DNA of 64,000 nucleotides from Myxococcales bacterium (GCA_031431215.1 JANPCZ010000013.1:8903-72902); one strand, 5' to 3'; numbered from the stretch's first letter, positions 5,508-36,473 are shown. Program-made: numbers and translations. The notes: generated by a model from the letters alone, not told the origin.

Positions 5508-5588
5508 CGACGCAGGATAGCGCGGCTCACACCCGCGGGCCCCGATCGGTTTGACAGCCAGGAGCCTTCGTTGGAGAAGACCTGCGCC

Positions 5589-6383
5589 ATGAGCGACGCA
5601 AGCGCGGCCGGGCCCACGATTCTGGATCAGTTCAGGCTCGACAAGAAGGTCGCCTGGATAACCGGCGGCACCAAGGGCCTCGGCATGGTCCTGGCCGATG
5701 CGCTGGCCAGCGTCGGTGCAGATGTGTTCATCACCAGCCGCAACGCCGACGAGGCGGCCGCCACCGCCGCCACCCTGGCGCGCAAGTACGGCCACCGCGC
5801 GCTGGGCCTTGCCGCCGACGTGACCTCCCCGGCGGCCGTCGACGCGGCGGTCGCGCGCGCGCACGCCGAACTCGGCGGCATCGACGTGCTGCTGAACAAC
5901 GCTGGCACCACCGTCCGCAAGTCGACCGTCGACATGCCGATCGATGACTGGAAGATGGTGGTCGACATCAATCTCAACGGGCCGTTCTATTGCAGCAAGG
6001 CCGTGATCCCCGCAATGGTGGCCAAGGGCTGGGGCCGCATCATCTACATCTCCAGCATCTTCGGGCTTGTGGGCATGCCCGGCCGCACCGGCTACGTCGC
6101 CACCAAGGGTGCCATCGTCCAACTCGCCAAGGCGCAGGCGCTTGAACTGGCAACCACCGGCGTGACCGTGAACTCGGTCTGTCCGGGCCCATTTGCGACC
6201 GCGCTCAACCGGGGCATCATGGAGGATCCGGAGAAGTACAAACAGTTCGTCGCGCGCATCCCGATGGGCCGCTGGGGCGAGATGCACGAGCTGCCCGGCG
6301 CGATCGTCTACCTGGCGTCGAACGCCGCCAGCTACGTCACCGGCACCAGCCTGGTCGTCGACGGCGGCTGGACCGCGCAGTAG
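5589..6383 (+). CDS. Short-chain dehydrogenase/reductase (SDR)
   Basis: Motifs ITGGTKGLG, NNAG and Y..ATKGA. ATG at 5589 is preferred over the TTG at 5571. Confidence 0.85.
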   Translation: MSDASAAGPTILDQFRLDKKVAWITGGTKGLGMVLADALASVGADVFITSRNADEAAATAATLARKYGHRALGLAADVTSPAAVDAAVARAHAELGGIDVLLNNAGTTVRKSTVDMPIDDWKMVVDINLNGPFYCSKAVIPAMVAKGWGRIIYISSIFGLVGMPGRTGYVATKGAIVQLAKAQALELATTGVTVNSVCPGPFATALNRGIMEDPEKYKQFVARIPMGRWGEMHELPGAIVYLASNAASYVTGTSLVVDGGWTAQ

Positions 6384-6396
6384 GTAAAGTAGAGCC

Positions 6397-7404
6397 ATGA
6401 CCGCCAACCAGCCGCCGCAGATTGCACATCGCCGCATGGGCGTGGCCGAGACGTCGTACTCGATGCGGCAGGCGAAAGGTGCCGGCAGCGCCGCGCATCC
6501 CGGCTTCCACGATGGCCTCGATCTTATCAAGCACGTCGCCGAGCTGGGCGGTGGCGGTGGCCAGGTCAGAGTCGCCGGCTGGGACACCGCGATGGCTGAA
6601 CGGGTGCGTGCGTTTTGCGAAAAGGCCGGCCTGTTCGTCGAGGGCCAGATAGGCCTGCCCAAGGACGCCGACGATGCCGCCCGCTTCGAGCGCGAGCTTG
6701 CGACTCTGAAACTCGCCGGCGGCCGGATCGCACGCACCATCCTGCACGGCGGCCGCCGCTACGAGGTGTTCGATTCGCTGCCCGCCTATGAAGCCTGGCG
6801 CAAACGCGCGTGGGAATCGCTGCGCCTGGCCGAACCCATCGTGCGCAAGCTGGGTATGAAGCTGGCCATCGAGAACCACAAGGAAGTGCGCATCGACGAG
6901 TTGCTCGACTTGGTCAAGCGCACCGGCAGCGAGGCCATCGGCATTTGCGTCGACACCGGCAACAGCATCGCGCTACTCGAAGATCCGTACGAGGTCGTCG
7001 AGGCCTACGCGCCGTTCGCGATGAGCGTCCACGTCAAGGACATGGGCGTCAAGGCGACGCCGGAGGGATTTCTCCTGTCCGAGGTCCCACTGGGCGACGG
7101 CTTTCTCGACCTGCCACGCATCGTGAAGCGCCTGCGCGCCGCCAACCCCACGATCGCGTTCAATCTAGAAATGATCACGCGCGATCCGCTGAGCATCCCG
7201 TGCCTGACCGACAAGTACTGGATCACGATGCCGGCGGTGCCGGCGCGCGATCTGGCGCGCACACTCGCGCTGGTTCGGGCCAAGGAAAACCCGGCCAAGC
7301 CCCTGCCCGCAATCACGGGCCTCGATCCCGCTGCCCGGCTCGCGTTCGAGGAAGACAACATCCGCAAGTCGTACGCCTACGCGCGCGCCAAGCTGGACCT
7401 GTAG
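6397..7404 (+). CDS. Sugar phosphate isomerase/epimerase (xylose-isomerase-like TIM barrel)
   Basis: Motifs LAIENHKE, ICVDTGNSIALLEDP and HVKD are typical of the family. The last 184 nt are duplicated at 10938-11121. Confidence 0.7.
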   Translation: MTANQPPQIAHRRMGVAETSYSMRQAKGAGSAAHPGFHDGLDLIKHVAELGGGGGQVRVAGWDTAMAERVRAFCEKAGLFVEGQIGLPKDADDAARFERELATLKLAGGRIARTILHGGRRYEVFDSLPAYEAWRKRAWESLRLAEPIVRKLGMKLAIENHKEVRIDELLDLVKRTGSEAIGICVDTGNSIALLEDPYEVVEAYAPFAMSVHVKDMGVKATPEGFLLSEVPLGDGFLDLPRIVKRLRAANPTIAFNLEMITRDPLSIPCLTDKYWITMPAVPARDLARTLALVRAKENPAKPLPAITGLDPAARLAFEEDNIRKSYAYARAKLDL

Positions 7405-7568
7405 CGGCGCGGCCGCGCTACCGCAGCAGCGCCCCGATGGCCTGGTACCAGACATTGGCTATGACAAGGTAGCCGGCGTCCTTGGGGTGAAGACGGTCCG
7501 CCATGAGCGCGGTTTTGTACCCGGCATCAGCCGTGAAGGCGCCGTACATGTCGACCAGGATGATGTGC
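7221..7568. repeat. Left copy of a 348-bp direct repeat (partner 10938-11285)
   Basis: Hand alignment of both copies. The repeat begins at GATCACGATGCCGGCGGTGCC and ends at GTCGACCAGGATGATGTGC. I counted about 19 mismatches. Confidence 0.9.
7418..7568 (-). pseudogene. 3' fragment of an SGNH/GDSL hydrolase gene (duplicate of the end of 11135-11983)
   Basis: Its translation ...HIILVDMYGAFTADAGYKTALMADRLHPKDAGYLVIANVWYQAIGALLR matches the C-terminus of the full-length gene (...HIILVDMYGAFTANPAYRTALMADRLHPKDTGYLVIASVWYQAIGALLR). Homology stops at the repeat boundary. Confidence 0.85.
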
Positions 7569-7575
7569 GGGTGGC

Positions 7576-8514
7576 ATGGTGAGGCTGGAGATCGTGCTCC
7601 ACCCGGACGAGGCCGCCGTCGTGCTGCAGGCGCTGGACAAGGCGCGGGAAGCGCTGCGCACCACCACCAACGTTTCCGCGGAAACGCCCCAGGTCGCCGC
7701 AGCCTCCGCGCCGACACCCCCGCCCACAACGGCAACCGCGTCGGCGACGGCGTCCACGCCCGCCCCCACCCCGACCCGCGCCGACGCCGTCATGGCCGTC
7801 GCCGACGCGTTCTTGGCCCTCCCCCTCTCGGCCGCCGCCAGCACCGCCAGCGCCAGCGCCGCCGGCCCAGGCCGGTACCAGGTCTTCGTGCACCTCGATC
7901 AGGATCCGTTCGCCGCGCCCGGCGCGCTGGTCGCGACACTCGCGGACGGTACGCGCGTTTCCGCGGAAACGCTCCGGCGCATTGCCTGCGACACCGGACT
8001 CGTCGGCGCCGCCCGCGACGAAGGCGCCTCCGTCCTGGACATTGGCCGCCGCACGCGCACCATCTCGCCAGCCTTGAAGCGGGCGCTGTGGCTCCGCGAC
8101 CGTGGCTGCCGGTTCCCTGGTTGCAGCAACACGCGCTTCCTTCACGGCCATCACATCCACCACTGGCTCCGCGGCGGCGCCACCAGCCTGGCCAACCTCG
8201 CCCTGCTATGCCCGGCCCACCACCGCCTGGTGCACGAAGGCGGCTACGCCGTCGAATGCTGCGCCAGCGGCGACCTTCTGTTCCGGGCGCCCGATCTACG
8301 CCCGATCCCGGTCGTACCACCCGCCGAGCTGGTTGCCGACGCGGTCGAAGCGCTTCACGAGGCCGCCGCTACCCGCGGCGTCGAGATCGGCCCCGACACC
8401 AACCTGCCCTGGTGGGACGGCACCGTGCCCGACTACACGTGGGCTACCGAGATCGTGCACGCTGCAACACGGCCGATAGGTTCACCGCTCGAACAAGGTG
8501 CGGGGCAGGCCTGA
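7576..8514 (+). CDS. HNH endonuclease of the DUF222 type, apparently 5'-truncated at the insertion junction
   Basis: HNH core is RDRGCRFPGCSNTRFLHGHHIHHWLRGGATSLANLALLCPAHHRLVHEGG. The upstream motif DIGRRTRTISPALKRAL is typical of DUF222-HNH proteins. The frame opens only 12 nt upstream (stop at 7561-7563), right at repeat end 7568. Confidence 0.75.
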   Translation: MVRLEIVLHPDEAAVVLQALDKAREALRTTTNVSAETPQVAAASAPTPPPTTATASATASTPAPTPTRADAVMAVADAFLALPLSAAASTASASAAGPGRYQVFVHLDQDPFAAPGALVATLADGTRVSAETLRRIACDTGLVGAARDEGASVLDIGRRTRTISPALKRALWLRDRGCRFPGCSNTRFLHGHHIHHWLRGGATSLANLALLCPAHHRLVHEGGYAVECCASGDLLFRAPDLRPIPVVPPAELVADAVEALHEAAATRGVEIGPDTNLPWWDGTVPDYTWATEIVHAATRPIGSPLEQGAGQA

Positions 8515-8703
8515 CTGGCGAATGATCGACATCAGCGTTCCGATCCTGAGCTCATCGTGAAGCGGCACCGGCACCGTGATCGTGGTCTCGCTGGTGCGCT
8601 TCTGCATGACGACGTGGCTGCCCCGTTGGCGAACTTCCGCGAATCCGTTCCCAGCCAGGACTGCGCAGAGCTGTTTTCCCGAAAAGGTTCTCAGGCTACC
8701 CAA
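8482..8703 (-). CDS. hicA: HicA-family mRNA interferase toxin
   Basis: Sequence SGKQLCAVLAGNGFAEVRQRGSHVVMQKRTSETTITVPVPLHDELRIGTLMSIIRQSGL. A probable TTG start at 8703 overlaps the hicB stop. Confidence 0.75.
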   Translation of the reverse strand: MGSLRTFSGKQLCAVLAGNGFAEVRQRGSHVVMQKRTSETTITVPVPLHDELRIGTLMSIIRQSGLPRTLFER

Positions 8704-8920
8704 CCGCAACCTCGAGCCGGGTGACAAAGACCTGGTCGTGCAAGCGCAGCTTGATCTCCGACTCGTCCGCGGTTTCGAAGAACAGTTGCAGAGCCTCGAC
8801 CAGGTTTCTGCTGGCCTCATCGATCGAGGCGCCCTGACTGACCACGTCTACCTCCGGACACAACGCCACGTACCCATCGCCTTCCTTCTCGATGATCGCC
8901 GTCATCTGCCTGGTTTTCAT
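8696..8920 (-). CDS. hicB: HicB-family antitoxin
   Basis: Sequence MTAIIEKEGDGYVALCPEVDVVSQGASIDEASRNLVEALQLFFE. The start is uncertain (ATG at 8971, 8920 or 8905). Confidence 0.7.
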   Translation of the reverse strand: MKTRQMTAIIEKEGDGYVALCPEVDVVSQGASIDEASRNLVEALQLFFETADESEIKLRLHDQVFVTRLEVAVG

Positions 8921-9038
8921 TGCCAAGACCATAGCATTCTTGGCGCCTACGGGAGGCTGCTCGACGCCCATGGCAGCGCGTTCGGGCCCCGCCGGACGTG
9001 TGACCGTACCTGTCGCATGCCGCGGTTAACCTTGGGGC

Positions 9039-10052
9039 ATGGGCCAACCCTTGTCTCTGGTGGTGTACGGCAGCGCGCTTGGCAAGACCTCCGAGCGCTT
9101 CGTGGTCAAGCAGCACGGCAAGGTCATCGAGGAGAAGCCGTTCTTCCGGGTCAGCGAGATCGTGGTGCCGTCGCGAGGCGTGTCGCTGTCCGCAGCGGCA
9201 CTGTTCGAGGCGGTCACGCGCGGCATCCGCGTATCTTTTCTCGGGCCGACCGGAACACCCTACGCCCTGCTGTCGTCGTCGGCGCTGGTCGCCACGGTGG
9301 AAACTCGCCGAGCCCAGCTATCGGCCTACGACGATCAGCGCGGCGTCGAGATCTCGCGCGCCATCGTGGCAGGCAAGATCCGCAACCAGGGCCGCCTCTT
9401 GCGCTACTTCCGCAAGTACGAGACCGAGGCCGAACCCGCGCGGGCCGAGGTCCTGCACGACATCGCCGACCAGCTCGATGCGCTCGCGGATGCGGCGGAC
9501 GCCATCACCGGCGCCACTATGAAGGAGGCCCGTTTCCGCCTGCTGGGCGCGGAAGGCGGCGCTGCCCGGGTGTACTGGCGGGGCGTCACGGCCTTGCTGG
9601 AAGGGTCTGCCCTGTTCACGGGCCGCAAGGGTCGCGGCGCCATCGACCCAGTCAACGCGCTGTTGAACTACGGCTACGGGGTCCTGTCGCAGGCGGTGTG
9701 GGGCGCGGTCCTGAACGCCGGCCTTGAACCGTATGGTGGCTTCCTGCACGTCGACCGTCCCGGCAAACCGTCGCTGGTGCTCGACCTGATGGAGGAGTTC
9801 CGGGCGCCCATCATCGACCGCGTCGTGTTCGCGATGTGCCGGCGCAGCGAGGGAATACGCGTTGAGGCCGGGCGGCTGGATGAAGGAACGCGGAGGCTGG
9901 TGGCAGATCGCGTGCTGGAACGGCTTGGCGCCGACGCCCGTTTCGGTGGCCGCCGCGTGTCCGTGCGGGCCATCGTGCAGGCCCAGGTGCGCAGCATCGC
10001 GGCTTTCGTGCGCGGCAAAGGCAGCTACCGTTCGTTCGCGTTTCAATGGTGA
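9039..10052 (+). CDS. cas1: CRISPR-associated endonuclease Cas1
   Basis: 337 aa. Motifs NALLNYGYGVL, GLEPYGGFLHVDRPGKPSLVLDLMEEFRAPIIDRVV and the N-terminal beta domain (VVYGSALGKTSERFVVK). The reading frame is intact. Confidence 0.9.
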   Translation: MGQPLSLVVYGSALGKTSERFVVKQHGKVIEEKPFFRVSEIVVPSRGVSLSAAALFEAVTRGIRVSFLGPTGTPYALLSSSALVATVETRRAQLSAYDDQRGVEISRAIVAGKIRNQGRLLRYFRKYETEAEPARAEVLHDIADQLDALADAADAITGATMKEARFRLLGAEGGAARVYWRGVTALLEGSALFTGRKGRGAIDPVNALLNYGYGVLSQAVWGAVLNAGLEPYGGFLHVDRPGKPSLVLDLMEEFRAPIIDRVVFAMCRRSEGIRVEAGRLDEGTRRLVADRVLERLGADARFGGRRVSVRAIVQAQVRSIAAFVRGKGSYRSFAFQW

Positions 10053-10065
10053 GGCACGTGGGCAC

Positions 10066-10360
10066 GTGGAGCTGCTGACTTTGGTCATGTACGACATCGA
10101 GGACGACCGCGTGCGCGGCAAGATCGCCGATGACTGCAAGGACGCAGGACTGGAACGCGTGCAGTACAGTGTCTTCCGCGGCACGCTGACCCGCACCCAT
10201 CGCAGCGAGCTGATCGCGAAGCTGACCGATCGCCTTGGGCGACCGGCGCGGCCGCTTCCTGGTGGTGGCCCTGTGCGAGCGCGACGTGCGTGACATGCGG
10301 GAACACATCAACGACATGCCGGGTACCGTGCCCGGGCGCGACGGGAGCGCGGCCGCGTGA
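10066..10360 (+). pseudogene. cas2: cas2 interrupted by a single-nucleotide frameshift
   Basis: Frame A gives VELLTLVMYDIEDDRVRGKIADDCKDAGLERVQYSVFRGTL...AKLTDRLG and then runs into a stop at 10291-10293. Frame +1 is open from 10226 and gives DRRGRFLVVALCERDVRDMREHINDMPG... with a stop at 10358-10360. Together they make a normal ~98-aa Cas2. Confidence 0.7.
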
Positions 10361-10440
10361 TGGAGCTGCGGGCAAGCGATCTACGCCAGTACCTTTACTG
10401 CCCCCGGGTCGTGTACGCTGCGCCGTCGCTCAAGCCGCAC
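10360..10440 (+). pseudogene. Possible cas4 5' stub
   Basis: The ATG at 10360 overlaps the restored cas2 stop (ATGA). Its translation MELRASDLRQYLYCPRVVY resembles the Cas4/RecB-like N-terminal motif (first cluster Cys in a CPR context). No further Cas4 similarity is visible, and the CRISPR starts 147 nt downstream. Confidence 0.3.
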
Positions 10441-10506
10441 ATGTTCTCGACAGCAGGCTCGATCTGCCGCCTTCCAAGGCCGCGGAACCGCAGTACAATC
10501 CGACCT

Positions 10507-10615
10507 CCAACAAGAACTTCCCCAACGAAGAGGGGACTGAAACGATCTGGCGCCGGTGGTTGGGGTGGACGTGATCTTTCCAACAGGAATTCCCCAACGA
10601 AGAGGGGACTTCGCT
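10507..10615 (+). CRISPR. Mini CRISPR array: 2 repeats and 1 spacer
   Basis: R1 (10507-10543) is CCAACAAGAACTTCCCCAACGAAGAGGGGACTGAAAC. The spacer (10544-10579) is GATCTGGCGCCGGTGGTTGGGGTGGACGTGATCTTT, 36 nt. R2 (10580-~10615) is CCAACAGGAATTCCCCAACGAAGAGGGGACTTCGCT, which is degenerate at its 3' end. The array sits directly downstream of cas1-cas2. Confidence 0.7.
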
Positions 10616-10685
10616 TTATCCCGCCCCCTTTTCTGTCAGCTCCCGCGGGCCCACGCTTCGCGGGACGCTTCGCGGGGCCCCGGCG

Positions 10686-10874
10686 CTACTGAGCGCAGCC
10701 GATCCGGTCGGTGCCGACCGCGATTTCATCGACCCACAGGTTGAAGCCGTCGGGATGCGAGGGCTCGGGGTGGGAGTTGTGCAAACCGAACAGCAGTTGC
10801 GCGTTGCCAGGCACGGTCCACGCTAGCTTTTGGCTAAAGCAAACAACACCCAGAATCCCGACGAAGGCGCGCAT
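10686..10874 (-). pseudogene. Relic ORF: C-terminal fragment of a secreted protein
   Basis: Hand translation gives MRAFVGILGVVCFSQKLAWTVPGNAQLLFGLHNSHPEPSHPDGFNLWVDEIAVGTDRIGCAQ*. Only the last ~40 aa look like a conserved C-terminal beta-strand region. The family is not identified. Confidence 0.3.
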
Positions 10875-10937
10875 TCCGACAGCGCTTCCGTTACGGGCGT
10901 AGCTTGTAGTGTTTGAAGTAGATGTTATCTGGGGAAA

Positions 10938-11121
10938 GATCACGATGCCGGCGGTGCCGGCGCGCGATCTGGCGCGCACACTCGCGCTGGTTCGGGCCAA
11001 GGAAAACCCGGCCACGCCCCTGCCCGCAATCACGGGCCTCGATCCCGCTGCCCGGCTCGCGTTCGAGGAAGACAACATCCGCAAGTCGTACGCCTACGCG
11101 CGCGCCAAGCTGGACCTGTAG
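10938..11121 (+). pseudogene. 3' fragment of the sugar phosphate isomerase gene (duplicate of 7221-7404)
   Basis: Its translation ITMPAVPARDLARTLALVRAKENPATPLPAITGLDPAARLAFEEDNIRKSYAYARAKLDL is identical to the end of 6397-7404 apart from one K-to-T change. Confidence 0.85.
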
Positions 11122-11285
11122 CGGCGCGCTCGCCCTAGCGCAGCAGCGCCCCGATGGCCTGGTACCAGACACTGGCGATGACGAGGTAGCCGGTGTCTTT
11201 GGGGTGAAGACGGTCCGCCATGAGCGCGGTCCTGTACGCGGGGTTGGCCGTGAAAGCCCCGTACATGTCGACCAGGATGATGTGC
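10938..11285. repeat. Right copy of the 348-bp direct repeat (partner 7221-7568)
   Basis: See the left copy. This copy contains the 3'-terminal isomerase fragment and the true 3' end of the SGNH hydrolase gene. Confidence 0.9.
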
Positions 11286-11983
11286 TTGCCTGCGGCGGCG
11301 CGGATCTCGACCAGCGGCGGCATGGCGTTGTTGTAGTCCCGTACGCGGCCGTTTGTGGTTTCGTCACCATTCGGCACGATCTGCGCCAGCACGATCAGTG
11401 CCTCGGGCGCGGCGGCGGTGATCTTGTCCAGCATCGCGCCCAGGCGCGCCGGTGCGTTCGCGAGGTCGAGCTTGATGTCGATGTCGTTGGTGCCGATCAT
11501 GAGCAGCACAATGTGTGGCTTGTGCGCCGCCATGACCCGGTCCACCAGCGGCGAGAGGCCCGCCCGCCCACCGCCGGGGTCGATGGTGAAACCCGAGTGG
11601 CCCTCGTGCAGGCGCGGAAAAACCGTGCTGTCGACCATGGCCGGACCGTTGCTGGCGGTGCCCACGAACGTGATCGTTTGCTTCTCGGCCAGGCTCATCC
11701 GAAATAGCGGCACCCGGTACCCACCGCCGCTCGATCCGAACCCTTCGGTGATCGAGTCGCCGAACGGCAGGATCCGGCACGCCATGCCGGCCGGTGGACA
11801 AGGGTTGTACAACGACGGCGATCCGTCCGGGCGATTCACCGTGACGGCGGGCGTGACCCAGTCAAGCGGCCCATCCGCGACGGCCGGCATGGCGTCGCCT
11901 GCATCGGCGCGAGGTCCACAGCCCGAAACCAGACCCAGCCAGAAAGCACCCGCGGAACCGACGGCGACAAGCAGCGTGCGCAC
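11135..11983 (-). CDS. SGNH/GDSL hydrolase-family lipoprotein
   Basis: Lipobox LVSGC, block I FGDSITEG, and later HSGF and GTND motifs. Confidence 0.8.
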   Translation of the reverse strand: MRTLLVAVGSAGAFWLGLVSGCGPRADAGDAMPAVADGPLDWVTPAVTVNRPDGSPSLYNPCPPAGMACRILPFGDSITEGFGSSGGGYRVPLFRMSLAEKQTITFVGTASNGPAMVDSTVFPRLHEGHSGFTIDPGGGRAGLSPLVDRVMAAHKPHIVLLMIGTNDIDIKLDLANAPARLGAMLDKITAAAPEALIVLAQIVPNGDETTNGRVRDYNNAMPPLVEIRAAAGKHIILVDMYGAFTANPAYRTALMADRLHPKDTGYLVIASVWYQAIGALLR

Positions 11984-12004
11984 TATCTCGACACGATCGC
12001 ACGG

Positions 12005-14896
12005 TCAGAACGCAGCGGCCAGCCCGACCCGCGCCGAGCGTCCATAGCGCGGCACGGTCGGCGACAGGACCTCCTCACCTACGGGAAACCCGGCGCCGTA
12101 GCCGCGCACGTCGAGGAGGTTGAACAGCCCGGCGAAGTAGCGCAGGCGCCATGCGCGGTACTCGCCCGACACGGTCACGTTCCACATGACGGCGTCGTCC
12201 ACGCGCTCGCCGGCGCGCGAGTGCCGGCCGGCATCGTAGAGCAACTCGTTACCGAGGCGCAGGAACGTTGGCACCAGGGCGTAAAGGCCGCGCACCGACA
12301 CCAGATGCGCCGGCGCATTGGCGAACGGCCGTTCCACCCCGTTTGCGTCGAGGGCGCGCACCCGCTGCCACGAGTACGAGAACACCAGCAACGTGGCGGC
12401 GCCCGGCTCCCAGCGCAACTCAGCCTCGGCGCCCAGGCTGCGCACGCGATCGGCGCGGTTCTTGTACACCAGCGCCTCGCTTGTCCCCGATATCGTGGTC
12501 GCGCCCAGTTCGATCAGGTGGTCGACCTGGTTGGCGAATACGGTCCCGACCAGGGCCACATCTTCCTCCAACGTGTGCACGTGCTCGATCTCGGCCGACA
12601 GGATGGTCTCGGGCGACAGGCTGACTGCCTGCACCTGGGTCGCGCCGCCGTCGTTGTAGAAACGCTCGTAGGCCGACGGCGCGCGGAACGCCCGACCGAG
12701 CAACAGCTTGGTGTTGCCGCCCCGGTAAGGCTGCGCGATGACCGCCAGGCGTGGATTCAGTGTTGAACCGAAGCTGTGCCGGTACTGATCGGCGCGCACG
12801 CCCAGATTCACCCGCAGCCAACCAGTCATGCGCCAGTCGTCGACCACGTAGCCCGACAGCACCAGCTCGCTGTCACCGCCAGCCTTGACTTGCGCAGCGC
12901 TGGACGGCGACCCCAGATCGATCTGGAACTGGCTCTGGGTCTCGCCGCCCACAGTCACACGCTGGCCCGCCAGCACGGGTAACTCCAGCCGCAACTCGCC
13001 GGTCACCCACTGGGCAGCAAACCGATCTGCCAGATCGTCGCGTGGCTTGCCGGCGTCGTCGGGCGTGAGCTTGTAGGTACCGCGGAAGCGGCTCATGTCG
13101 TAGGCCGCCCGGCCCGACAGCTTGAAAGCCCCCAGCGACGTGTCGCCCCGCAGCTCGGCATACGCACGCGTGTCGAGATAGTTCGTGCCCGGCTCTGCTC
13201 GGGTTTCGTAAGCTCCCGTCGGCACGTCCTTGTCACGCTGGTTCCAGCCCGCCCGCAGGGTCAGCGGCCCGACGCGTGCAGTGGCATCGGCATGATGGGC
13301 GCGTTCGACATCGCCTCGGCGCACCGAGGTGGCACCGTCCAGTAGCCGGTACTGCCGGTCACCGATCTGCCGCAACGAAGCCCCGCCAATCGTGATCTCG
13401 GACGCCTCGCCACGCGCGCTCAGCGTCGCCCGGCCCGACAGCAGGCCGAGCGATCCACTTTGCACCAGCGCCGAGCCGTGCGGCCCGCGCACCGGACGCT
13501 TGCTGACCACGTTGATGACCCCGAACAGCGCGGCGGTGCCGTACAGCACCGAGCCTGGCCCCCGCACCACCTCGATGCGCTCCACGTTCGACAGATCGAC
13601 ATCAAGTTCGTGCCCCACGAAACCCTGGCCGACCGTGATCTCGTTGTACGGGTGCCCGTCCACCAGCACCAGCACACGGTTGGTGTAATCGCCCGGCGGT
13701 GAGAAACCCCGAAAACCCACCGACTCATAGCTACGGTCGTTGGAAGCAAACGCGCCGCGGACTCCCGCCAGCGCCTCGCCCAAGGTGGTCCAGCCGAACG
13801 CCGCGATCTCGTCTGCGGTCACCACCTCGATGGACGCAGGGGCATCTTCAGCGCGCACCAGGCTCTTGGTCGCCGCCGTGATCTCGGGCTCCGCGCGCCG
13901 CAACCGCACCTCCAGATACGCGCGCTCACCCTTCTTCACACTGACGACCGCGCGGAAAGTCTGCCGCCCTTCCCTGCTAATCTCGACGGCGCGCTCGCCC
14001 TCGAGAACCCCTTCGACCACCGCCGGAGTGAAGCCCATCTCGCGGCCGTCGATTCGCACCAGCGCGCCGTCGATGTTGGCACGCACCACAAGAGCACCTG
14101 TCGGCGGCGCCGCCGGCACCAGCGGCACGTCGATCGGAACCACAGCGTCGGGCTGGACCTCGACCTCCACCCGCTCGGTCTGGAACCCTGCCGCCGACAC
14201 GAACAGGACATGGCGCCCGGGCACCAGGCGCACCGCACCGGGCCCGTGGTGCACCACCTCGCCGTCGACGAAATCGCGCCGCACGTCCGAAATGGCGGGC
14301 AAACGCCGCAGTTCGATGTGGCCATAGATGCGCTCGAGCACCGCCGTCGCCCGCGCCTCCTTGGCCTTGCCCACGTCCACCACGACCTCCACCGCCCGGT
14401 AGCCCTCGCGGTCGAGGACCAGCGTGACCTTGCCCTCGGGCAGCGCCAGCAACTTGGGGGTGCTGCCTAGCGCCCCCAGATCGCGCCGACCCACGTAGAT
14501 CACGGCACCCGGTGGCTCGGTCGTCACCGACACCAGGGCCAGGTGTGGCCGCAGGCGATCGATGGCAGCTTTGATGGTTGCACGCTCGGCGTCGACCTGG
14601 TTCGGTGTATCCAGCGCCGACCACAGACGAAACGCCTCGTCGTACAGCTTGAGCTGTTCGAGGCAGCGCGCGATGTTGAACTGCACATTGCGATTCGCGA
14701 CCAGACGGTTCGACGCGTAGTACGCGGTCAGGGCGTCGTCGAAACGGCCCTGCCGGTAAAACTGATTGCCGCGCACGAAGTGGAACTGCGCCTCATCGGC
14801 CACGTCGGCCGCTGCGGCCGGCGCCGCGAACGCCGGCGCGAGCGCGCCCACCATCAACGCCACGACCATCGACACGATCCGAACCGGCGAGGCCAT
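12005..14896 (-). CDS. TonB-dependent outer-membrane receptor with an N-terminal TPR plus ~3 PEGA-like domains
   Basis: Signal peptide MASPVRIVSMVVALMVGALAPAFA (ATG at 14896 preferred). A TPR-like segment is followed by PEGA-like units (VSVTTEPPGAVIYVG...EGYRAVEVVV and others). Plug motifs are IEVVTADEI, GFRGF, VLVDG and IERIEVVRGPGSVLYG. The barrel ends ...ARVGLAAAF. Confidence 0.8.
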   Translation of the reverse strand: MASPVRIVSMVVALMVGALAPAFAAPAAAADVADEAQFHFVRGNQFYRQGRFDDALTAYYASNRLVANRNVQFNIARCLEQLKLYDEAFRLWSALDTPNQVDAERATIKAAIDRLRPHLALVSVTTEPPGAVIYVGRRDLGALGSTPKLLALPEGKVTLVLDREGYRAVEVVVDVGKAKEARATAVLERIYGHIELRRLPAISDVRRDFVDGEVVHHGPGAVRLVPGRHVLFVSAAGFQTERVEVEVQPDAVVPIDVPLVPAAPPTGALVVRANIDGALVRIDGREMGFTPAVVEGVLEGERAVEISREGRQTFRAVVSVKKGERAYLEVRLRRAEPEITAATKSLVRAEDAPASIEVVTADEIAAFGWTTLGEALAGVRGAFASNDRSYESVGFRGFSPPGDYTNRVLVLVDGHPYNEITVGQGFVGHELDVDLSNVERIEVVRGPGSVLYGTAALFGVINVVSKRPVRGPHGSALVQSGSLGLLSGRATLSARGEASEITIGGASLRQIGDRQYRLLDGATSVRRGDVERAHHADATARVGPLTLRAGWNQRDKDVPTGAYETRAEPGTNYLDTRAYAELRGDTSLGAFKLSGRAAYDMSRFRGTYKLTPDDAGKPRDDLADRFAAQWVTGELRLELPVLAGQRVTVGGETQSQFQIDLGSPSSAAQVKAGGDSELVLSGYVVDDWRMTGWLRVNLGVRADQYRHSFGSTLNPRLAVIAQPYRGGNTKLLLGRAFRAPSAYERFYNDGGATQVQAVSLSPETILSAEIEHVHTLEEDVALVGTVFANQVDHLIELGATTISGTSEALVYKNRADRVRSLGAEAELRWEPGAATLLVFSYSWQRVRALDANGVERPFANAPAHLVSVRGLYALVPTFLRLGNELLYDAGRHSRAGERVDDAVMWNVTVSGEYRAWRLRYFAGLFNLLDVRGYGAGFPVGEEVLSPTVPRYGRSARVGLAAAF

Positions 14897-14900
14897 GGGT

Positions 14901-16568
14901 TCAGCGTTGGTCCTTGATGTCATCGAAGGCCGGTTTAGGCTTGCCCGCAGACCCAGCCGGCCTGGCCGAGGCCGGCTTACCGGGCGACAATTTCCGCAGT
15001 TTCGCTTTCAGCTTCAACCCCGGTGACGGCTGCGCCCTGATGGTCTCGCGCCGGTAGCCGTCGAGCGCGAACTCGAATGTGGCCGGCTCATCCGTGGCGG
15101 TGACACCGGGCAGCTTGAACAGCGCAGGCGTGGTTGCCACCACGACCCCACCCATCGTGACGGTGGCGCCCGCAGGCTCACTGTCGAGCCCAATCTCGAT
15201 CGGTGCCACGTCGGCTGCACGTGCGGCTACCGGCGCCACCGGTTCGGCCATGGGAGCCGGCGCAGCCGGTGCCGGCACGGCCAGCGCCGGTCGCGGGGCA
15301 ATGGCCTCGACGTCCGGGCCGGGCGCCGTGGTCTGCGTCCGGAACAACTGCCCGCCCGCCACCACCGCCAGCGCGACCGCCAGGGCCAGCCCACCCACCT
15401 TGATGGTCCACCCGCGCCGCGCGACCCGCACCGTGGTCGCCGCTGGCGGCCGATCGATGGTCACCCCACGCGACAGCGTGGTCATCGCCGACAGCGGCCG
15501 CGGCGCGATCGGCGCCGGCCGCGGTCGCGGCGTCTTGTACGGCGGCCCGGGCTCGGCGCCGCCGCCGGCCGCCACCAACTCGTCCTGCAGGTCGAGCAGG
15601 AACTCGTCCATGGTCGGGTAGCGGGTCTCGGGCAACTTCGCCAGCGCCCTCAAGATCGCCGCCTCCAGCGCCACGGAGATGGCCGGGCTGTGACCGCGCG
15701 GCGGCACCGGCGCCTGGTTGATGTGCATGTTGATCAGCGCCCCCACGCCCTCCGACAGGAACGGGGGCTCCCCGCACACCATCTCGTACAGAATCACCCC
15801 CAACGAATAGACATCGCTGCGAGCGTCGACTTCCTTCACACCCAGACACTGCTCGGGCGACATGTAAAGCGGGGTGCCCATGAGCACGCCGGTGCGGGTC
15901 CGATGCGACTGCCCCTCGGCGTTCTGCTGCAGCTTGGCGATGCCGAAGTCCAGGATCTTGACCTGCTTGTGCCCAGCTACCCGCGGGTTTTCGGTGAGAA
16001 ACAGGTTCTCGGGCTTGAGATCGCGGTGAATGATCTTCTTCTCGTGCGCCGCTGCCAGCGCCTCGGCCACCTGGCACGCCCAGTCGAGCGCGATGATGAT
16101 GGCGGGCCGATGCTCGCGCAGCTCGGCCTGCAGGGTCCGGCCATCGAGGTACTCCATCACAATGTACGGCGTGCCGTCGGGCAGGGTGCCGTAGTCGTAG
16201 ATGTCGACGATGCTCGGGTGATGAACCGCGTTCGACGCGCGCGCCTCGGTGAAGAAGCGACTGACCAGCTGCTTGTCGCGCGCGAGGTAAGGGTGCAGGA
16301 CCTTGATGGCCGCCTTGCGCTCGATACCCGGGTGGAGCGCCAAGTAAACCTTGCCCATGCCCCCTTCCCCGAGCAGCTCGCGAACCTGATAGTTGCCGAT
16401 GGTCGTGCCGATCAAACGCTGGCCCGGCGGGATTATCGGCCTCGAAAAACCAATTAGCAACGCGAGCGACACGCCAGCCTGCGCGACCGCCGCTTCAGTC
16501 GAGGCGGCAATCTTCGACACCGAGGCTGGCGCCGCTTCGGGCGCGCCTCTTGGCGTCGACTTCAGCAT
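14901..16568 (-). CDS. Membrane Ser/Thr protein kinase with a periplasmic C-terminal PEGA domain
   Basis: Kinase motifs GEGGMGKVYLA, HRDLKPENLFL, DFG and SPEQ. A Pro-rich linker is followed by TM GGLALAVALAVVAGG, then a PEGA-like IEIGLDSEPAGATVTMGG...DGYRRETI. Its stop lies 4 nt before the receptor gene's start. Confidence 0.85.
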   Translation of the reverse strand: MLKSTPRGAPEAAPASVSKIAASTEAAVAQAGVSLALLIGFSRPIIPPGQRLIGTTIGNYQVRELLGEGGMGKVYLALHPGIERKAAIKVLHPYLARDKQLVSRFFTEARASNAVHHPSIVDIYDYGTLPDGTPYIVMEYLDGRTLQAELREHRPAIIIALDWACQVAEALAAAHEKKIIHRDLKPENLFLTENPRVAGHKQVKILDFGIAKLQQNAEGQSHRTRTGVLMGTPLYMSPEQCLGVKEVDARSDVYSLGVILYEMVCGEPPFLSEGVGALINMHINQAPVPPRGHSPAISVALEAAILRALAKLPETRYPTMDEFLLDLQDELVAAGGGAEPGPPYKTPRPRPAPIAPRPLSAMTTLSRGVTIDRPPAATTVRVARRGWTIKVGGLALAVALAVVAGGQLFRTQTTAPGPDVEAIAPRPALAVPAPAAPAPMAEPVAPVAARAADVAPIEIGLDSEPAGATVTMGGVVVATTPALFKLPGVTATDEPATFEFALDGYRRETIRAQPSPGLKLKAKLRKLSPGKPASARPAGSAGKPKPAFDDIKDQR

Positions 16569-16844
16569 GGCAGCTGAAGATCTTTGGCGAGATCGCCGAT
16601 GGTACCAACAAGACGTCTACACCAGACGGTAAGGCAGCAAAGACGTGGGCTACGTCGGCAACACCCCCTCCGCCACCTGGGATGGTCCATCCAAGGCGGT
16701 TTTGCGCCACGTCAAGCTGATCTGAAGTCCTCACAATGCCCTGGCCACGTCCGATGGTTTGTGCGACTTTATACAAAGTAATGTCCGTGACTATTCATCT
16801 GGGCGGAACATCGGCCCAGACGGCCTCACCGGGGGACGGCTGAC

Positions 16845-18475
16845 ATGGGCAGCATGCGCGTCTTGCTGTCGCCGTTCCGAGCACAGCCTCACGAAGAGCC
16901 GCCCGAACCGGCGAAGTCATCGGGGCCTTCCCGCCGGGCGGCTTTCTCGAAGCGCTGTTCAGTCTGTGGTTACCGCTTCGAGGCGGATCTGGAGGTCTGC
17001 CCGCTCGACGGTGTCAAGCTGCCGCAAGAACGGCCCGAGGTCGGCCAGCTTGGCCCCTACCGCCTGGTGGAACGTCTGGGCATCGGCGGCATGGGCGCCG
17101 TGTACCGCGCCGTGCACGAGAAGGTCGGACGCGGCGTCGCGATCAAGATGCTGCACCTGTCGCTGATGTCGAACCGCATGATGGTGCAGCGATTCTTCGA
17201 CGAGGCGCGGGCCATCAACAAGATCCGGCATCCCAACGTGGTCGACGTCTACGATCTCGTGTCGGCCGAGGACGATCTCCACATGGTGATGGAGCTCCTA
17301 CGCGGCAAGGATCTGGCGAAAGTGCTGTCGGAAGGCCCACTGCCCGCCGCGCGCGCCGTCAACATCCTCGAGCAGGTGTGTGGCGCGCTGTACGCGGCAC
17401 ACGAGCGCGGCGTCATCCACCGCGATCTCAAACCCGCCAACGTGTTCATCACCCGGCGTGGCGAGATCGAGGATTTCGTCAAGCTGCTCGACTTCGGCGT
17501 GGCCAAGCTGGAACGCCCGAACGGCATGATGACCGCCGAGGGCATGACGGTGGGAACGCCCGAGTACATGGCGCCCGAGCAGGCCCACGGCAAGGCGGTC
17601 GACAACCGCACCGACATCTACGCGGTCGGATGCCTGGCCTACGAGATGCTGACCGGGCGCCACGTGTTCGACGGCGCCACACCGGCCGACATCATGGTCA
17701 AGCACGTCACGCAGCCTCCCGTACCCATGCGCCAGTGGAACCCGATGATCCCACCCGCGCTGGACGCGGCCGTGCTGCACTGCCTGGCCAAGCCGCCCGA
17801 GGCGCGCCCAGCCAACGCGATCGATCTCGCGCAGGAGCTCAGCGCCGCGATCGGCCGGCCGTTCGACGGCAGCGGCGCCTTCATGCGCTGGCGCGAGTGG
17901 AGCGATACGACGTCCGAGACCACTGGGCTCGGCCGCACCGCCGCCGGGATCTCGGGGACGCGCCTCCGCCGCGCTGCGGTCGCGTCGCGCCGCCGGCAGT
18001 GGCTGCTGGCTGCCAGCGCCCTCGGCTTCGTGATGGTCGCGGGCTTGCTGGCGTTGTCTTTTGGACGAGGCTCGCCGAAGCCGGCAGCGCCGGAGATCGT
18101 CCCGGACGTGGCGATGGCGCCACCGACACCGGCGATCGCGGGCAGGGCCAACGCACGAATACGCCTCCAATCGACCCCGCCGGGCGCCGATCTCTACGAC
18201 GCAAGCGGCAACAAGCTGGGCGTCACGCCGCTGGACATCGATCTGCCGCAAGAAGTCCGGCACCGGGTGCGCTTCGTGCGCGAAGGCTACCTGCCCGCCG
18301 AACGAACCATCCTGGTCGATGGTGACACGACCATCCTGGTCGAGTTGAAGGCCGAGCCGGTGCGCGGGCGGCAGGCGGCAGCCAACGGTCGGGAGCCCGG
18401 GACGACGCCGCCGGGTTCACGAACACGAAAGTCGGTGTTGAAGACCGGGTCCGGAACGATCAATCCTTTCGGCCC

Positions 18476-20068: not shown

Positions 20069-23000
20069 TTGGACTCTGCTTCACGCACATTTGCTGTTGG
20101 GATGGTGCTGTCCATCGCGATCGCGCCGGGCTGCCGCGAGTCCACACCCGCCATCACGGGCGTCCAGATCACCTCGACCTGGACCGGCTCGGCGGTCGAG
20201 CAGCTCGAGTTCACCCTGGCGACCAGTGGCGGGCAACCAATCGGCGCGCCTGAAAAACGGCCCGCGATGGCCGCCGGAACCCTGGCCAGCGGGGTGAGCG
20301 TGGTGATTTATGTCGGCGACACTCTGGCGGGCCAGACCGTGCGCTGCCGCGTGCGCGGTTTCGCTGCCGGCCGCCCGGCGCGGACCGGTGAGAGCAGCGC
20401 CACGCTGGTGAAGGGAACCATCGTCGATGTGACCATCCCGCTCGCCAGGATCGGAGCCGGGGCCGGGGGAGCCGGTGGCGTCGGTGGTGAGGACGGCCAG
20501 GGCGGGACCGGTGGCAACGACTCGCCCGCGCCGCCCGCCGACGCTGCCGTGACCGGTCCGCAGAGCGACGCACCGGCCAGCGCGACCGATGCCGTTGATG
20601 GCCCGGCACCGGGTCCCGACAAAGCACCGGCCACCGATGTGACCGCCGGAACCACGCCCATCGGTGAGCCGTGCGGCGCTGCGGGCGAGTGCCGCAGCGG
20701 CTACTGCAGCGACGGCGTGTGCTGCAGCAGCGCGTGCACCGGGCTTTGTTTGGCCTGCGACGTACCGGGCAAGCAAGGCGCGTGTAGCGCAGTGCCTGCT
20801 GGGCTCGACGATATGGGCTGCGCGCGCGACACCGTCGAGAGCTGCGGCTTCGACGGCACCTGCGACGGCAAAGGCGCCTGCCGAAAATACCCCCCAGGTG
20901 CCCGCTGCTCGGCCGGGCGCTGCGCCGGTAGCACCATCGCGGCGGCCGGCGCCTGCGACGGCGCGGGCGCTTGCCGCTCGGGCAGCGTGCAGATCTGCGC
21001 GCCGTTCGCGTGCGATCCCACCACCAATCCGCCGCGCTGCCAGCCCAAATGCACCACCGCCGCCGAATGCGTGATGGGCCGCGACTGCGTCGCCGGAAGC
21101 TGTGGCAAGAAGTTCGATGGCGCCCAGTGCACCCTGCCCGGCGAGTGCGCCAGCGGATTCTGCGCCGATGGTGTCTGCTGCAACATGAAATGCGACGGTG
21201 CCTGCCTGTCGTGCGCGATGCCGGTGTCACTGGGCCTTTGTTCACCGGTCGGAAGCGGCGGCCAGGATGTGCGCGGCGTGTGCAAGGACCAGGGCGCCAC
21301 CAGCTGCGGCACCACCGGCACCTGCGATGGCGCCGGCGCGTGCGCGAAATACCCGGCCGGCGCCGTGTGCAAGCCCGCGGCGTGCACCGGCGAAACCGTG
21401 CTCATGAGCGCCGGCCGGTGCGACGGCATCGGTGCCTGCCAGATCGGCGCCGAGGTGTCATGCGCACCGTCGCTGTGTCGCTTCGGCGCCTGCACCCTGA
21501 CTTGCCAACGCAACGAGGACTGCGCGCCCGGAAGCCCGTGCGATCTGGTGGCGATGAACTGCGGCAAGAAAGGACTGGGCCAGGCGTGCAGCGACGCCGC
21601 CCAGTGCGGCAGCGCCTTCTGCGTCGATGGCGTGTGCTGCAGCGACGCCTGCGTGGGGCCATGCCGGTCATGCGCGGCCGGCCGAATGCCCGGACTGTGC
21701 ACGATGGTGGCCGCCGGCGCGGCCGATACGCGCGCCACGTGCAAGGACACCGGCGAGCCGTCGTGCGGGACCGACGGCACCTGCGACGGTAGCGGAGCCT
21801 GCCGCCGCTACCCCGCCGGCACGGTGTGTGGCGCAGGATCGTGTACCGGGGGTATGCGCACACTGGCCTCGACCTGCGATGCGGGCGGGATGTGCGCGGC
21901 GGGCGCGGTCACCAGCTGCGGTGCATTCGCATGCAATGGCCCGGTGTGCTTCTCGGGCTGTGGCAGCGACGCCGATTGCGTCGCGCCCAACGTGTGCGTC
22001 GGCGGTACGTGCGGCCTGCGCCCGAGTGGCGTGGCCTGCATGAAGGCCAGCGAGTGCGGCAGCGGCAACTGCATCGACGGCGTCTGCTGCGCTGCCATGA
22101 CCTGCGGCGCATGCACGGCGTGCAACGTGGCGGGGTCAGCCGGCGTGTGCGCTCCGGTAGCTACCGGAACCATCGACCCGCGCGGTAGCTGTACCGCCCA
22201 GCAGCCGGCCACCTGCGGCTCCGACGGCACCTGCAACGGCGCCGGCGGCTGCCGCAAGCACCTGGCCGGCACCGCGTGCGGTGGTGCCTCGTGTGCGGCC
22301 GGCGGCAGCACGGTCACCCTCGGCTCCGCGTGCGATGGCGACGGCACCTGCGTGAGCGGCGGCATGCAGTCGTGCGCTCCTTACAAGTGCAACGCCGCCG
22401 GGACCGCGTGCGCGACGACATGCGCGACCGTGAACGATTGCGTGGCACCTACCGCTTGCTCGGTGGTGGGCCAGTGCGGGACACTCAAACCCTCCGGTCA
22501 GACCTGCCTGCTGGGCCCCGAGTGCGCGACCGGCAACTGCGTCGACGGTGTGTGCTGCGCAGCCGCGTCGTGCGGAACGTGCCGGGCGTGCAACGTCGCG
22601 GGCAAGCTCGGCAGCTGCGCACCGGTTGCCGCCGGCACGGTTGATCCGCGTGCCGCGTGCGCCGTGACGGCGATATCCGGCTGCGGAACCGACGGCAAGT
22701 GCAACGGCGGCGGCGCCTGCCGCACGTACCCGGCCGGCACGGTGTGCACCGCCGGCTCGTGCTCGGGGACCAACACGGCCACGCCGCCGGCCCTGTGCAA
22801 TGGTAGCGGTGCCTGCGTGCAGCCCAGCGGAACTCTGGCTTGCGGCGCTTACAAGTGCGCCGCCGGTGTCTGCCCGCCAAGCTGCACCATCGACGCGGAT
22901 TGCGCAGCGGGGTACTTCTGCCTCGGCACCACCTGCGCCAAGAAGCCGCTCGGCGCTGCGTGCACCGCCAACACCGATTGCACCAGTAGCCACTGCACCG

Positions 23001-23401
23001 ACGGCGTATGCTGTGGATCCTCGGCCTGCACCAGGTGCCAGGCATGCAACGTCGCCGGCTTCCTGGGCACCTGCCACGATATGCCCAACGGGACGCCGGA
23101 CCCGAGGCCCACCGGGTGCGTCGCGGCCGCGGTGTCAACCTGCGATCTGGACGGCAAGTGCGACGGCGCCGGCGAATGTCGCAAGTACCCCGCCGGGACG
23201 ACCTGCGATACTGCCACATGCAGCGGTTCCAACATCACGCCCAAGGTGTGCGACGGCAAAGGCGCGTGCAAGAACGGCACGGTCATCCAGTGCGGCGTGT
23301 ACCGGTGCGACGCGGCCAACCCGGGCACCTGTTTCAGCATGTGCAGTTCCGCGTCCCAGTGCGCGACGGGCCTTTCGTGCCAGAACAACGTCTGCCAATG
23401 A
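20069..23401 (+). CDS. Cys-rich repeat lipoprotein (six ~152-aa Cys-rich units)
   Basis: Lipobox IAPGC with a TTG start. A Gly-rich linker is followed by six units of the form G..C....EC.SG.C.DGVCC...C.G.C..C...G..G.C..V..G..D....C......CG.DG.CDG.G.CR.YPAG..C....C.G... This is characteristic of myxobacterial cysteine-rich repeat proteins. Confidence 0.8.
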   Translation: MDSASRTFAVGMVLSIAIAPGCRESTPAITGVQITSTWTGSAVEQLEFTLATSGGQPIGAPEKRPAMAAGTLASGVSVVIYVGDTLAGQTVRCRVRGFAAGRPARTGESSATLVKGTIVDVTIPLARIGAGAGGAGGVGGEDGQGGTGGNDSPAPPADAAVTGPQSDAPASATDAVDGPAPGPDKAPATDVTAGTTPIGEPCGAAGECRSGYCSDGVCCSSACTGLCLACDVPGKQGACSAVPAGLDDMGCARDTVESCGFDGTCDGKGACRKYPPGARCSAGRCAGSTIAAAGACDGAGACRSGSVQICAPFACDPTTNPPRCQPKCTTAAECVMGRDCVAGSCGKKFDGAQCTLPGECASGFCADGVCCNMKCDGACLSCAMPVSLGLCSPVGSGGQDVRGVCKDQGATSCGTTGTCDGAGACAKYPAGAVCKPAACTGETVLMSAGRCDGIGACQIGAEVSCAPSLCRFGACTLTCQRNEDCAPGSPCDLVAMNCGKKGLGQACSDAAQCGSAFCVDGVCCSDACVGPCRSCAAGRMPGLCTMVAAGAADTRATCKDTGEPSCGTDGTCDGSGACRRYPAGTVCGAGSCTGGMRTLASTCDAGGMCAAGAVTSCGAFACNGPVCFSGCGSDADCVAPNVCVGGTCGLRPSGVACMKASECGSGNCIDGVCCAAMTCGACTACNVAGSAGVCAPVATGTIDPRGSCTAQQPATCGSDGTCNGAGGCRKHLAGTACGGASCAAGGSTVTLGSACDGDGTCVSGGMQSCAPYKCNAAGTACATTCATVNDCVAPTACSVVGQCGTLKPSGQTCLLGPECATGNCVDGVCCAAASCGTCRACNVAGKLGSCAPVAAGTVDPRAACAVTAISGCGTDGKCNGGGACRTYPAGTVCTAGSCSGTNTATPPALCNGSGACVQPSGTLACGAYKCAAGVCPPSCTIDADCAAGYFCLGTTCAKKPLGAACTANTDCTSSHCTDGVCCGSSACTRCQACNVAGFLGTCHDMPNGTPDPRPTGCVAAAVSTCDLDGKCDGAGECRKYPAGTTCDTATCSGSNITPKVCDGKGACKNGTVIQCGVYRCDAANPGTCFSMCSSASQCATGLSCQNNVCQ
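20663..23398 (+). repeat. Six tandem coding repeats of ~456 bp (Cys-rich units)
   Basis: Unit starts were read from the protein: GEPCGAAGEC, GAQCTLPGEC, GQACSDAAQC, GVACMKASEC, GQTCLLGPEC, GAACTANTDC. The period is approximate. Confidence 0.65.
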
Positions 23402-36257: not shown

Positions 36258-36473
36258 TGGCTTGCGCCTGACGAAGCGCAAGGCCGGTGCAACCCGCGCC
36301 TGTGAGACGCCGCACGAGCGTCGCCTTTGGTTACATCCCCCGGGTTTGTTGCGTGCTCCGTAGGGCAGCCTTACCATCGCAGGCTTCCCGAGAATTCCGA
36401 ACACCGTCTACCGTGGGCCCCGGTGCGCGGGTCGGATTCGCCGGGCTCGTCATTTTATGGGGGTTTTGTTGTC

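Follow-up and report, generated by a model that had tools for sequence, protein, structure and literature searches.

A 64,000-nt stretch of DNA from a Myxococcales bacterium (GCA_031431215.1, JANPCZ010000013.1:8903-72902), referred to as a whole as the window, contains a segment of 3,369 nt inserted between two convergent genes, one for a xylose-isomerase-like protein and one for an SGNH hydrolase. The ends of both genes are duplicated around the insert as 348-nt direct repeats, and a relative of the host carries the same pair of genes uninterrupted. Judging by its genes and their order, the insert is a non-functional remnant of a type I-B-like CRISPR-Cas locus, derived from the promoter-distal end. 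The two repeat copies form a mosaic, nearly identical in their isomerase part and diverged in their SGNH part. We tentatively interpret the arrangement as a one-off duplicative insertion, made without dedicated machinery and followed or accompanied by homologous exchange with a relative about 10% diverged, rather than as a mobile element; our confidence in this reading falls a little short of even. The host is probably a member of the Myxococcota, class Polyangia, a placement based only on how SGNH homologues of 52-59% identity are named.

The insertion site and its direct repeats

Copies A (7221-7568) and B (10938-11285) of the repeat align over their 348 nt without gaps and with 19 mismatches (94.5% identity), and the homology ends abruptly at both edges of the alignment. 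Each repeat unit joins the final 184 nt of the isomerase gene, across a 13-nt spacer (7405-7417 in copy A), to the final 151 nt of the SGNH hydrolase gene; the stop codons in copy A are at 7402-7404 for the isomerase and at 7418-7420, on the minus strand, for the SGNH hydrolase. The outer repeat sequences complete intact genes, recognised by the Pfam families AP_endonuc_2 and Lipase_GDSL_2, and the inner ones are dead gene ends. The initial annotation, made from the sequence alone, had placed the repeats correctly to the base and had described their gene content, the intact outer flanks and the dead inner ends as we find them; it had recorded the duplication without the imperfect identity of the copies and the uneven distribution of their mismatches. 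No other long dispersed repeat of high identity occurs in the window, whose remaining repeats are in-frame Cys-rich repeats and one adjacent paralogue pair.

An empty version of the site is present in the European Nucleotide Archive contig ERZ27247924 (L164, 3,014 nt), reached via the closest SGNH homologue, P0242. Its DNA is about 90-93% identical to the window flanks and about 91% identical overall, and it contains, in uninterrupted order, the 3' end of the isomerase gene, 13 nt, the SGNH gene and the next gene, with no cargo. In two collinear, overlapping alignments, L164 1-623 corresponds to window 6946-7568 and L164 280-1251 to window 10942-11913; further on, L164 1362-3014 matches window 11916-13568. 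This is exactly the arrangement that recombination between the two repeats would restore, and the segment at 7569-10937 is an insertion. The look for an empty site in related genomes that had been proposed thus succeeded, and it bears out two earlier suggestions: that the segment entered an ordinary convergent gene pair and that recombination between the copies would re-create that pair. The alternative of a native CRISPR locus beside the SGNH gene, followed by two deletions, is rejected, as the same 972-residue outer-membrane-receptor-like gene lies upstream of the SGNH gene in both the window and L164.

Elsewhere, the isomerase protein has no match closer than 58% identity in the genome and metagenome contig collections. 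Its gene adjoins a short-chain dehydrogenase gene (5571-6383), a neighbour conserved in 63 of the distant loci fetched, and in 160 distant loci from genome and metagenome contigs the SGNH gene is not among the isomerase neighbours. Since distant isomerase loci keep the dehydrogenase and not the SGNH hydrolase, the adjacency of isomerase and SGNH genes is lineage-specific. In L164, the SGNH gene contains about 108 extra nucleotides, between positions 1251 and 1362 of the reverse-complemented contig as compared with window 11913-11916, encoding a Gly/Ala-rich linker after the signal region. Because of this linker, the SGNH proteins of the window and L164 are just 73% identical, despite a DNA identity of about 90% elsewhere.

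The mismatches between copies A and B are distributed very unevenly, the isomerase part having 1 in 184 nt, the 13-nt spacer 3 and the SGNH part 15 in 151 nt. The skew (1/184 against 18/164) has a Fisher p value of 1e-5, and an unbiased maximum chi-squared scan places a break after 7411 (permutation p=0.003). Using L164 as outgroup, we find 18 differences from L164 common to both isomerase pieces and a single difference between these pieces. For the SGNH part, with 8 changes specific to the dead fragment, 6 to the live gene and 6 to L164, the three sequences are equidistant. The SGNH differences between A and B fall at first, second and third codon positions in the numbers 3, 3 and 9. Of the changes specific to the dead fragment, 6 out of 8 are at third positions (p=0.02), implying that it diverged while still part of a working gene. 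This fragment therefore resembles the end of another SGNH allele that was once functional, and not a decayed copy of the present gene.

The left junction is reproducible in a separate assembly. Logan contig L001 (SRR20217180, 2,982 nt) corresponds to window 7491-10472 with three single-nucleotide polymorphisms, and joins 78 nt of copy A, with all of the copy-A-specific bases, to the HNH gene remnant. A 945-nt contig from a second run, SRR20217213, carries the hicA region with four such polymorphisms. Exact-protein look-ups with the isomerase, both SGNH versions, the HNH protein, the dead isomerase reading frame at the right junction and the Cip1-like fragment found no other contig. The three polymorphisms between the window and L001 (7655, 7669 and 7830) are all in the low-complexity N-terminal part of the HNH remnant, two of them altering the protein; none occurs in the 2 kb of the hicA pair, cas1 and cas2. 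Their placement hints at relaxed constraint on the HNH remnant.

Cargo genes and their parent locus

In DNA alignments, the insert is colinear with the tail of the CRISPR-Cas loci of contigs L082 and L083, from about codon 148 of their HNH gene to the first CRISPR repeat. The gene order of the relatives' locus is WYL regulator, cas6, large subunit, cas7, cas5, cas3, DUF222/HNH, small variable genes, cas1, cas2, cas4 and CRISPR array. Its Cas7 is of the Cst2/DevR kind, scoring above the cutoff of a type I-B model, and its 37-nt repeats end in GGGGACTGAAAC, as does the window repeat. The type I-B-like loci of the Myxococcota-like contigs L082, L083 and the P0122 contig have the same order as the insert from DUF222/HNH to leader and 37-nt repeat, and the window Cas1 is 77-78% identical to theirs. 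Unlike these loci, the window holds the tail only: the effector genes cas3, cas5, cas7, cas8 and cas6, present in the relatives, occur neither in the insert nor elsewhere in the 64-kb window. In contrast to the relatives, too, the window has a truncated HNH gene, a frameshifted cas2, a cas4 deleted down to 20 codons, a truncated leader and a single spacer enclosed by two repeats, leaving cas1 as the only whole gene of the adaptation module. The initial annotation had listed HNH, hicBA, cas1-cas2 and CRISPR as cargo, which matches what we find, with hicB putative and with the reductions just described. Its characterisation of this cargo as defence and mobile-type gives way to that of a colinear, decaying tail of a type I-B-like CRISPR-Cas locus.

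Both ends of the cargo fall inside genes, as had been noticed at the outset. At the left end, DNA homology to the HNH gene of L082 starts at 7568, the junction base, about 147 codons into that gene, and the remaining reading frame begins at an internal methionine just inside the junction. The right junction leaves only the 3' end of a Cip1-like/ConA-like gene, whose homologues carry Pfam Polysacc_lyase-like/Laminin_G_3 domains. Between these, the hicA gene probably starts at a TTG codon overlapping the end of the upstream gene. The label of antitoxin for the 91-residue product of the latter is putative, coming mainly from its position upstream of, and overlapping, hicA. The frameshift in cas2 is also present in L001. 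The CRISPR repeat occurs just twice in the window, its terminal copy being degenerate and devoid of the 3' GAAAC, and the 36-nt spacer has no significant phage match. A scan for promoters and terminators was uninformative, and the 64-kb window contains no second copy of any part of the insert. Coordinates and supporting matches are collected in the table.

Features of the insertion and its flanks (window coordinates)
Feature	Position	Strand	Support
Xylose-isomerase-like TIM-barrel gene, intact, 335 residues	6397..7404	+	Pfam AP_endonuc_2 E=1.3e-21; 3' part 91% identical to L164; last 184 nt in copy A
Repeat copy A, 348 nt: isomerase 3' end, 13-nt spacer, dead SGNH 3' end	7221..7568		Alignment; 7491-7568 joined to cargo in Logan contig L001
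Dead SGNH hydrolase 3' fragment, 49 codons and stop	7418..7568	-	15/151 nt differ from live copy
Inserted segment, 3,369 nt	7569..10937		Absent from L164; colinear with CRISPR-Cas loci L082 and L083
DUF222/HNH endonuclease gene, N-truncated, 312 codons left, ~147 missing	7576..8514	+	Pfam HNH; DUF222 profile positions 163-306 only
hicA-type toxin gene	8482..8682	-	Pfam HicA_toxin E=3.3e-17, 62.8 bits (cutoff 27), full-length domain
Putative hicB-like antitoxin partner, 91 residues	8696..8971	-	Pfam PHD_like E=0.002 (below cutoff); PDB 2yzt E=0.03
cas1, intact, 337 residues	9039..10052	+	Pfam Cas_Cas1 E=2.5e-68; NCBIfam cas1 241 bits
cas2 with +1 frameshift near 10236	10087..10360	+	Halves in different frames, both aligning to L082/L083 Cas2; Pfam/NCBIfam Cas2 matches first half
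cas4 remnant, first 20 codons	10357..10416	+	Remaining cas4 and most of leader (~0.6 kb in relatives) deleted
Leader remnant (10481-10506), 37-nt repeat (10507-10543), 36-nt spacer (10544-10579), degenerate terminal repeat (10580-10610)	10481..10612	+	86% identity to L082 leader end and first repeat
Cip1-like/concanavalin-like gene 3' end, 83 codons and stop	10686..10937	-	Cut at right junction; residues ~35-82 match extreme C-termini of 166-323-residue proteins
Repeat copy B, 348 nt: dead isomerase 3' end (10938-11121), spacer, live SGNH 3' end	10938..11285		Alignment
SGNH/GDSL hydrolase gene, intact	11135..11983	-	Pfam Lipase_GDSL_2 E=1.1e-22; 89.6% identical to L164

Composition gives no backing to the idea, put forward in the initial annotation together with a proposal to compare composition, that the segment is foreign. 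The G+C content at third codon positions of cas1 and the HNH gene is 0.85, just as in the host genes, and the insert ranks at the 28th percentile of windows of the same size in its tetranucleotide distance from the window average. Because the composition of the insert matches that of the host, its source would lie in the same or a closely related lineage, that is, the same genome or a fairly close relative. A plasmid collection contained no meaningful match, just short cas1 stretches at 70-86% identity, and among viral contigs no Cas1 exceeds 41% identity.

In all three relatives fetched, a gene for a DUF222/HNH protein of 418-435 residues is located between cas3 and cas1 (7670-8956 in L082, 8170-9477 in L083, and in the P0122 contig), and the truncated gene of the window occupies the same relative position. 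This points to the DUF222/HNH gene being a conserved accessory gene of the type I-B-like locus, not a random insertion. A full-text literature search combining DUF222, CRISPR and HNH returned nothing relevant. The CRISPR array of L082, a European Nucleotide Archive contig, (11998-18045) has more than 60 repeats of 37 nt; an IS3-type insertion sequence with HTH_Tnp_1 and rve genes interrupts it at 15497-16716, beyond which the array resumes.

Possible origins of the insertion

According to the duplicative-insertion reading, a single unbroken piece, about 3.4 kb long now and perhaps 4 kb or longer at first, would have been copied or captured into the region of the 13-nt gap between the converging genes. 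The piece would have run from the middle of the DUF222/HNH gene of a type I-B-like locus, through the hicA pair, cas1, cas2, cas4 and the array, and on into the gene that follows, and would have been attached by two non-homologous joints, at 7568/7569 and 10937/10938. The second junction falling 348 nt upstream of the first, the target would have become duplicated. The product, a tandem duplication whose junction holds an insertion, would have been generated by replication template switching or by end-joining with fill-in, and no element-encoded enzyme would take part. Later, or during the spread of the insertion allele, homologous recombination with a relative about 10% diverged may have ended in copy B near the isomerase stop codon, so that the live and dead SGNH pieces would represent two alleles while the isomerase pieces stay near-identical. 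If the allele was imported into, or partly overwritten by, an empty-site relative, the right-hand crossover must be placed within copy B or further out, as homology ends at 10938. With a crossover some 80-190 nt inside copy B, the isomerase pieces would come from one lineage and the SGNH pieces from two, exactly as observed. The cargo is in decay, having lost most of cas4 by deletion, with cas2 frameshifted and the array collapsed to one spacer. The toxin pair is intact within this otherwise decaying insert, and may impose a penalty on loss of the insert by repeat recombination.

A comparable outcome is known from tandem duplications of the fork stalling and template switching or microhomology-mediated break-induced replication (FoSTeS/MMBIR) type, in which a short segment is duplicated, a templated piece sits at the novel junction and the breakpoints ignore gene boundaries, all as in the window. 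Such events are known mainly from eukaryotic and human structural variants; to our knowledge, duplication-insertions of this type have rarely been documented in bacteria. The nearest described bacterial processes are homology-facilitated illegitimate recombination (HFIR) and transformation-linked merodiploidy, both of which differ from the window in scale and joint type. Shared features are the lack of element enzymes, the combination of non-homologous joints with homologous exchange, duplication as a by-product and the use of relatives' DNA (PMC3784515 and, for HFIR, PMC3240628). HFIR classically has one homologous and one illegitimate end and usually results in a deletion, whereas the window shows two illegitimate joints around 3.4 kb. 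Pneumococcal transformation merodiploids arise via interchromatid pairing as tandem duplications of 100-900 kb bordered by pre-existing insertion sequence repeats (PMC3784515), compared with a duplication of 348 nt in the window.

Several points weigh against duplicative insertion followed by exchange. It calls for one more event, as the recombination tract would have to end within about 115 nt inside copy B. The donor locus was not found, the closest Cas1 being 77-78% identical. The right junction (10937/10938) was not recovered in any independent contig, and L001 and the other sequencing run may derive from the window's own source reads. A clean loss by repeat recombination in the L164 lineage could look identical to an empty site that was never occupied. 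The codon-position statistics are built on 8 and 15 sites and a single outgroup. Finally, long target duplications are the textbook product of single-crossover integration, making Campbell-type integration a serious competitor. All viable models need two non-homologous joints; they differ in where the duplication and the mosaic come from.

Campbell-type integration had been favoured initially, and we consider it a possible, if unlikely, origin. A non-replicating circle composed of a piece of the CRISPR locus and a 348-nt isomerase/SGNH patch, both from a related cell's DNA, would have integrated by one RecA-dependent crossover, and heteroduplex repair would have equalised the isomerase halves. 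The overall structure fits this exactly: repeats of a chromosomal segment bracket the insert, the repeat would equal the patch in length, the outer genes are intact, and an empty allele equal to one copy exists. As in a Campbell merodiploid, the flanking direct repeats are hundreds of base pairs long, the inner ends are dead and recombination restores the wild type. The dead SGNH fragment is as diverged as the orthologue from another lineage and has coding-type substitutions, as expected for a relative's patch, and linear DNA entering E. coli can be ligated into a circle and integrated by single crossing-over (PMC3240628).

The mosaic is what Campbell-type integration alone leaves unexplained. 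A single crossover should leave the copies uniformly diverged or identical; instead they differ at 1 of 184 positions up to the isomerase stop and at 18 of 164 beyond it, with the break after 7411. A patch diverged by about 10% predicts some 18 differences in the isomerase part, where one is observed, and removing them takes mismatch repair of both recombinant copies in the same direction across the whole of that part. Two illegitimate joints for making the circle are still needed, as is a crossover between 348-nt sequences that are 10% diverged. Neither circle nor donor was found in protein and contig collections, and the window shows no circle, origin or plasmid backbone.

An older insertion, of about the age of the split from L164, is improbable in our judgement. 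L164 would never have had the insert or would have lost it cleanly, the SGNH ends would have diverged in place, and the isomerase half would have been homogenised by recent gene conversion. The star-like pattern of SGNH changes in A, B and L164 (8/6/6) agrees with such an age, as do the three lesions in the cargo, and a precise deletion between repeats is scarless, so that L164 is no proof of ancestral emptiness. Against this, a dead fragment should change faster and at random codon positions, while the one observed has 6 of its 8 changes at third positions and no more changes than the live copy. The HNH remnant (939 nt) and cas1 (1,014 nt) are free of frameshifts compared with their homologues, the isomerase fragment differs at just 1 of 184 positions, and 348-nt direct repeats 3.4 kb apart are unlikely to last unless their loss is selected against.

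An assembly artefact, to which we attach a low probability, might take two forms. In one, the assembly graph contained a loop, the chromosome being empty and the cargo existing separately with a hybrid 348-nt sequence; in the other, the insertion is real and a switch between strains inside copy B created the mosaic. Short reads yield one and the same graph for an integrated segment and for a chromosome accompanied by a circle. Identical stretches of the two copies reach 113 nt (7299-7411), and the end of L001 lies in 32 nt that both copies have in common, as would happen at a graph branch. The absence of independent recovery of the right junction and the strain-level variants of the cargo in two runs also leave room for it. 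On the other hand, the odd junctions join unrelated sequences and must be in the reads, the left one being confirmed with copy-A-specific bases. A 3.7-kb molecule without a replication gene would not persist at the coverage of the assembly, and nothing else in the 64-kb window appears duplicated or misjoined.

It is also conceivable, with very low probability, that the insert together with one 348-nt patch is a recombinase-free hitchhiker stabilised by its toxin-antitoxin pair, excising as a circle and re-entering relatives by single crossover in the manner of a natural suicide vector. If so, CRISPR adaptation genes would be carried between lineages in this way, and the diverged SGNH half of copy A would be a patch from the previous host.

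That the segment is a self-mobile element, be it a transposon, a Cas1 casposon, an integrase element or a product of HNH homing, is hardly credible, in spite of its intact cas1, HNH nuclease domain and putative toxin-antitoxin pair. Transposons duplicate 2-15 bp of their target and casposons about 14-15 bp. The direct duplication flanking the insert resembles theirs in kind but is 348 nt long, lacks a transposase or casposase context and has its ends inside genes; the initial annotation had rightly set it apart from target-site duplications made by transposases. A Pfam scan of all open reading frames of the cargo found HNH/DUF222, HicA, Cas1 and Cas2 only, and no transposase; no inverted repeats pair the two cargo ends. 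A transposon or insertion sequence is rejected on these grounds, as is a casposon, there being no family B polymerase gene and the Cas1 grouping with CRISPR adaptation Cas1 proteins, of an ordinary type I module that in relatives includes cas2, cas4 and an array. There is no tyrosine or serine recombinase in the insert, no tRNA gene in the window and no att-like context, and the repeats are 348 nt of two gene ends instead of short att cores, which rejects an integrase island or prophage. HNH homing leaves no target duplication, and the HNH gene is itself truncated. Off-target integration by Cas1-Cas2 would duplicate about one repeat length, not 348 nt.

Relevance and other repeats in the window

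The site provides a clean natural case, with the empty-site allele in a relative, of DNA gained with a long target duplication and without a mobility enzyme. In the laboratory such gains are common, as single-crossover integrants, but they are seldom caught in wild genomes. The dead SGNH fragment would be a fossil second allele, a sign that homologous exchange between lineages about 10% apart acted here. The insert also illustrates how CRISPR-Cas loci fragment and scatter, an orphan cas1 and a one-spacer array having been kept beside a toxin gene. This is relevant for counting orphan cas genes and mini-arrays in metagenome surveys, and advises caution in annotation. The case is an instance of known recombination outcomes and leaves current concepts unchanged; its value is that of a documented example.

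The remaining repeats of the window are of a different nature. An open reading frame of 1,341 codons (36327-40352) contains six in-frame tandem repeats of 174 nt (38735-39778), 62-73% identical and encoding Cys-rich units, and another of 1,110 codons (20069-23401) contains Cys-rich repeats that recur about every 456 nt (20667-23227); both presumably encode large, repetitive secreted proteins. The adjacent same-strand genes at 59210-60379 and 60376-61692, with 70-77% DNA identity, form a tandem paralogue pair.

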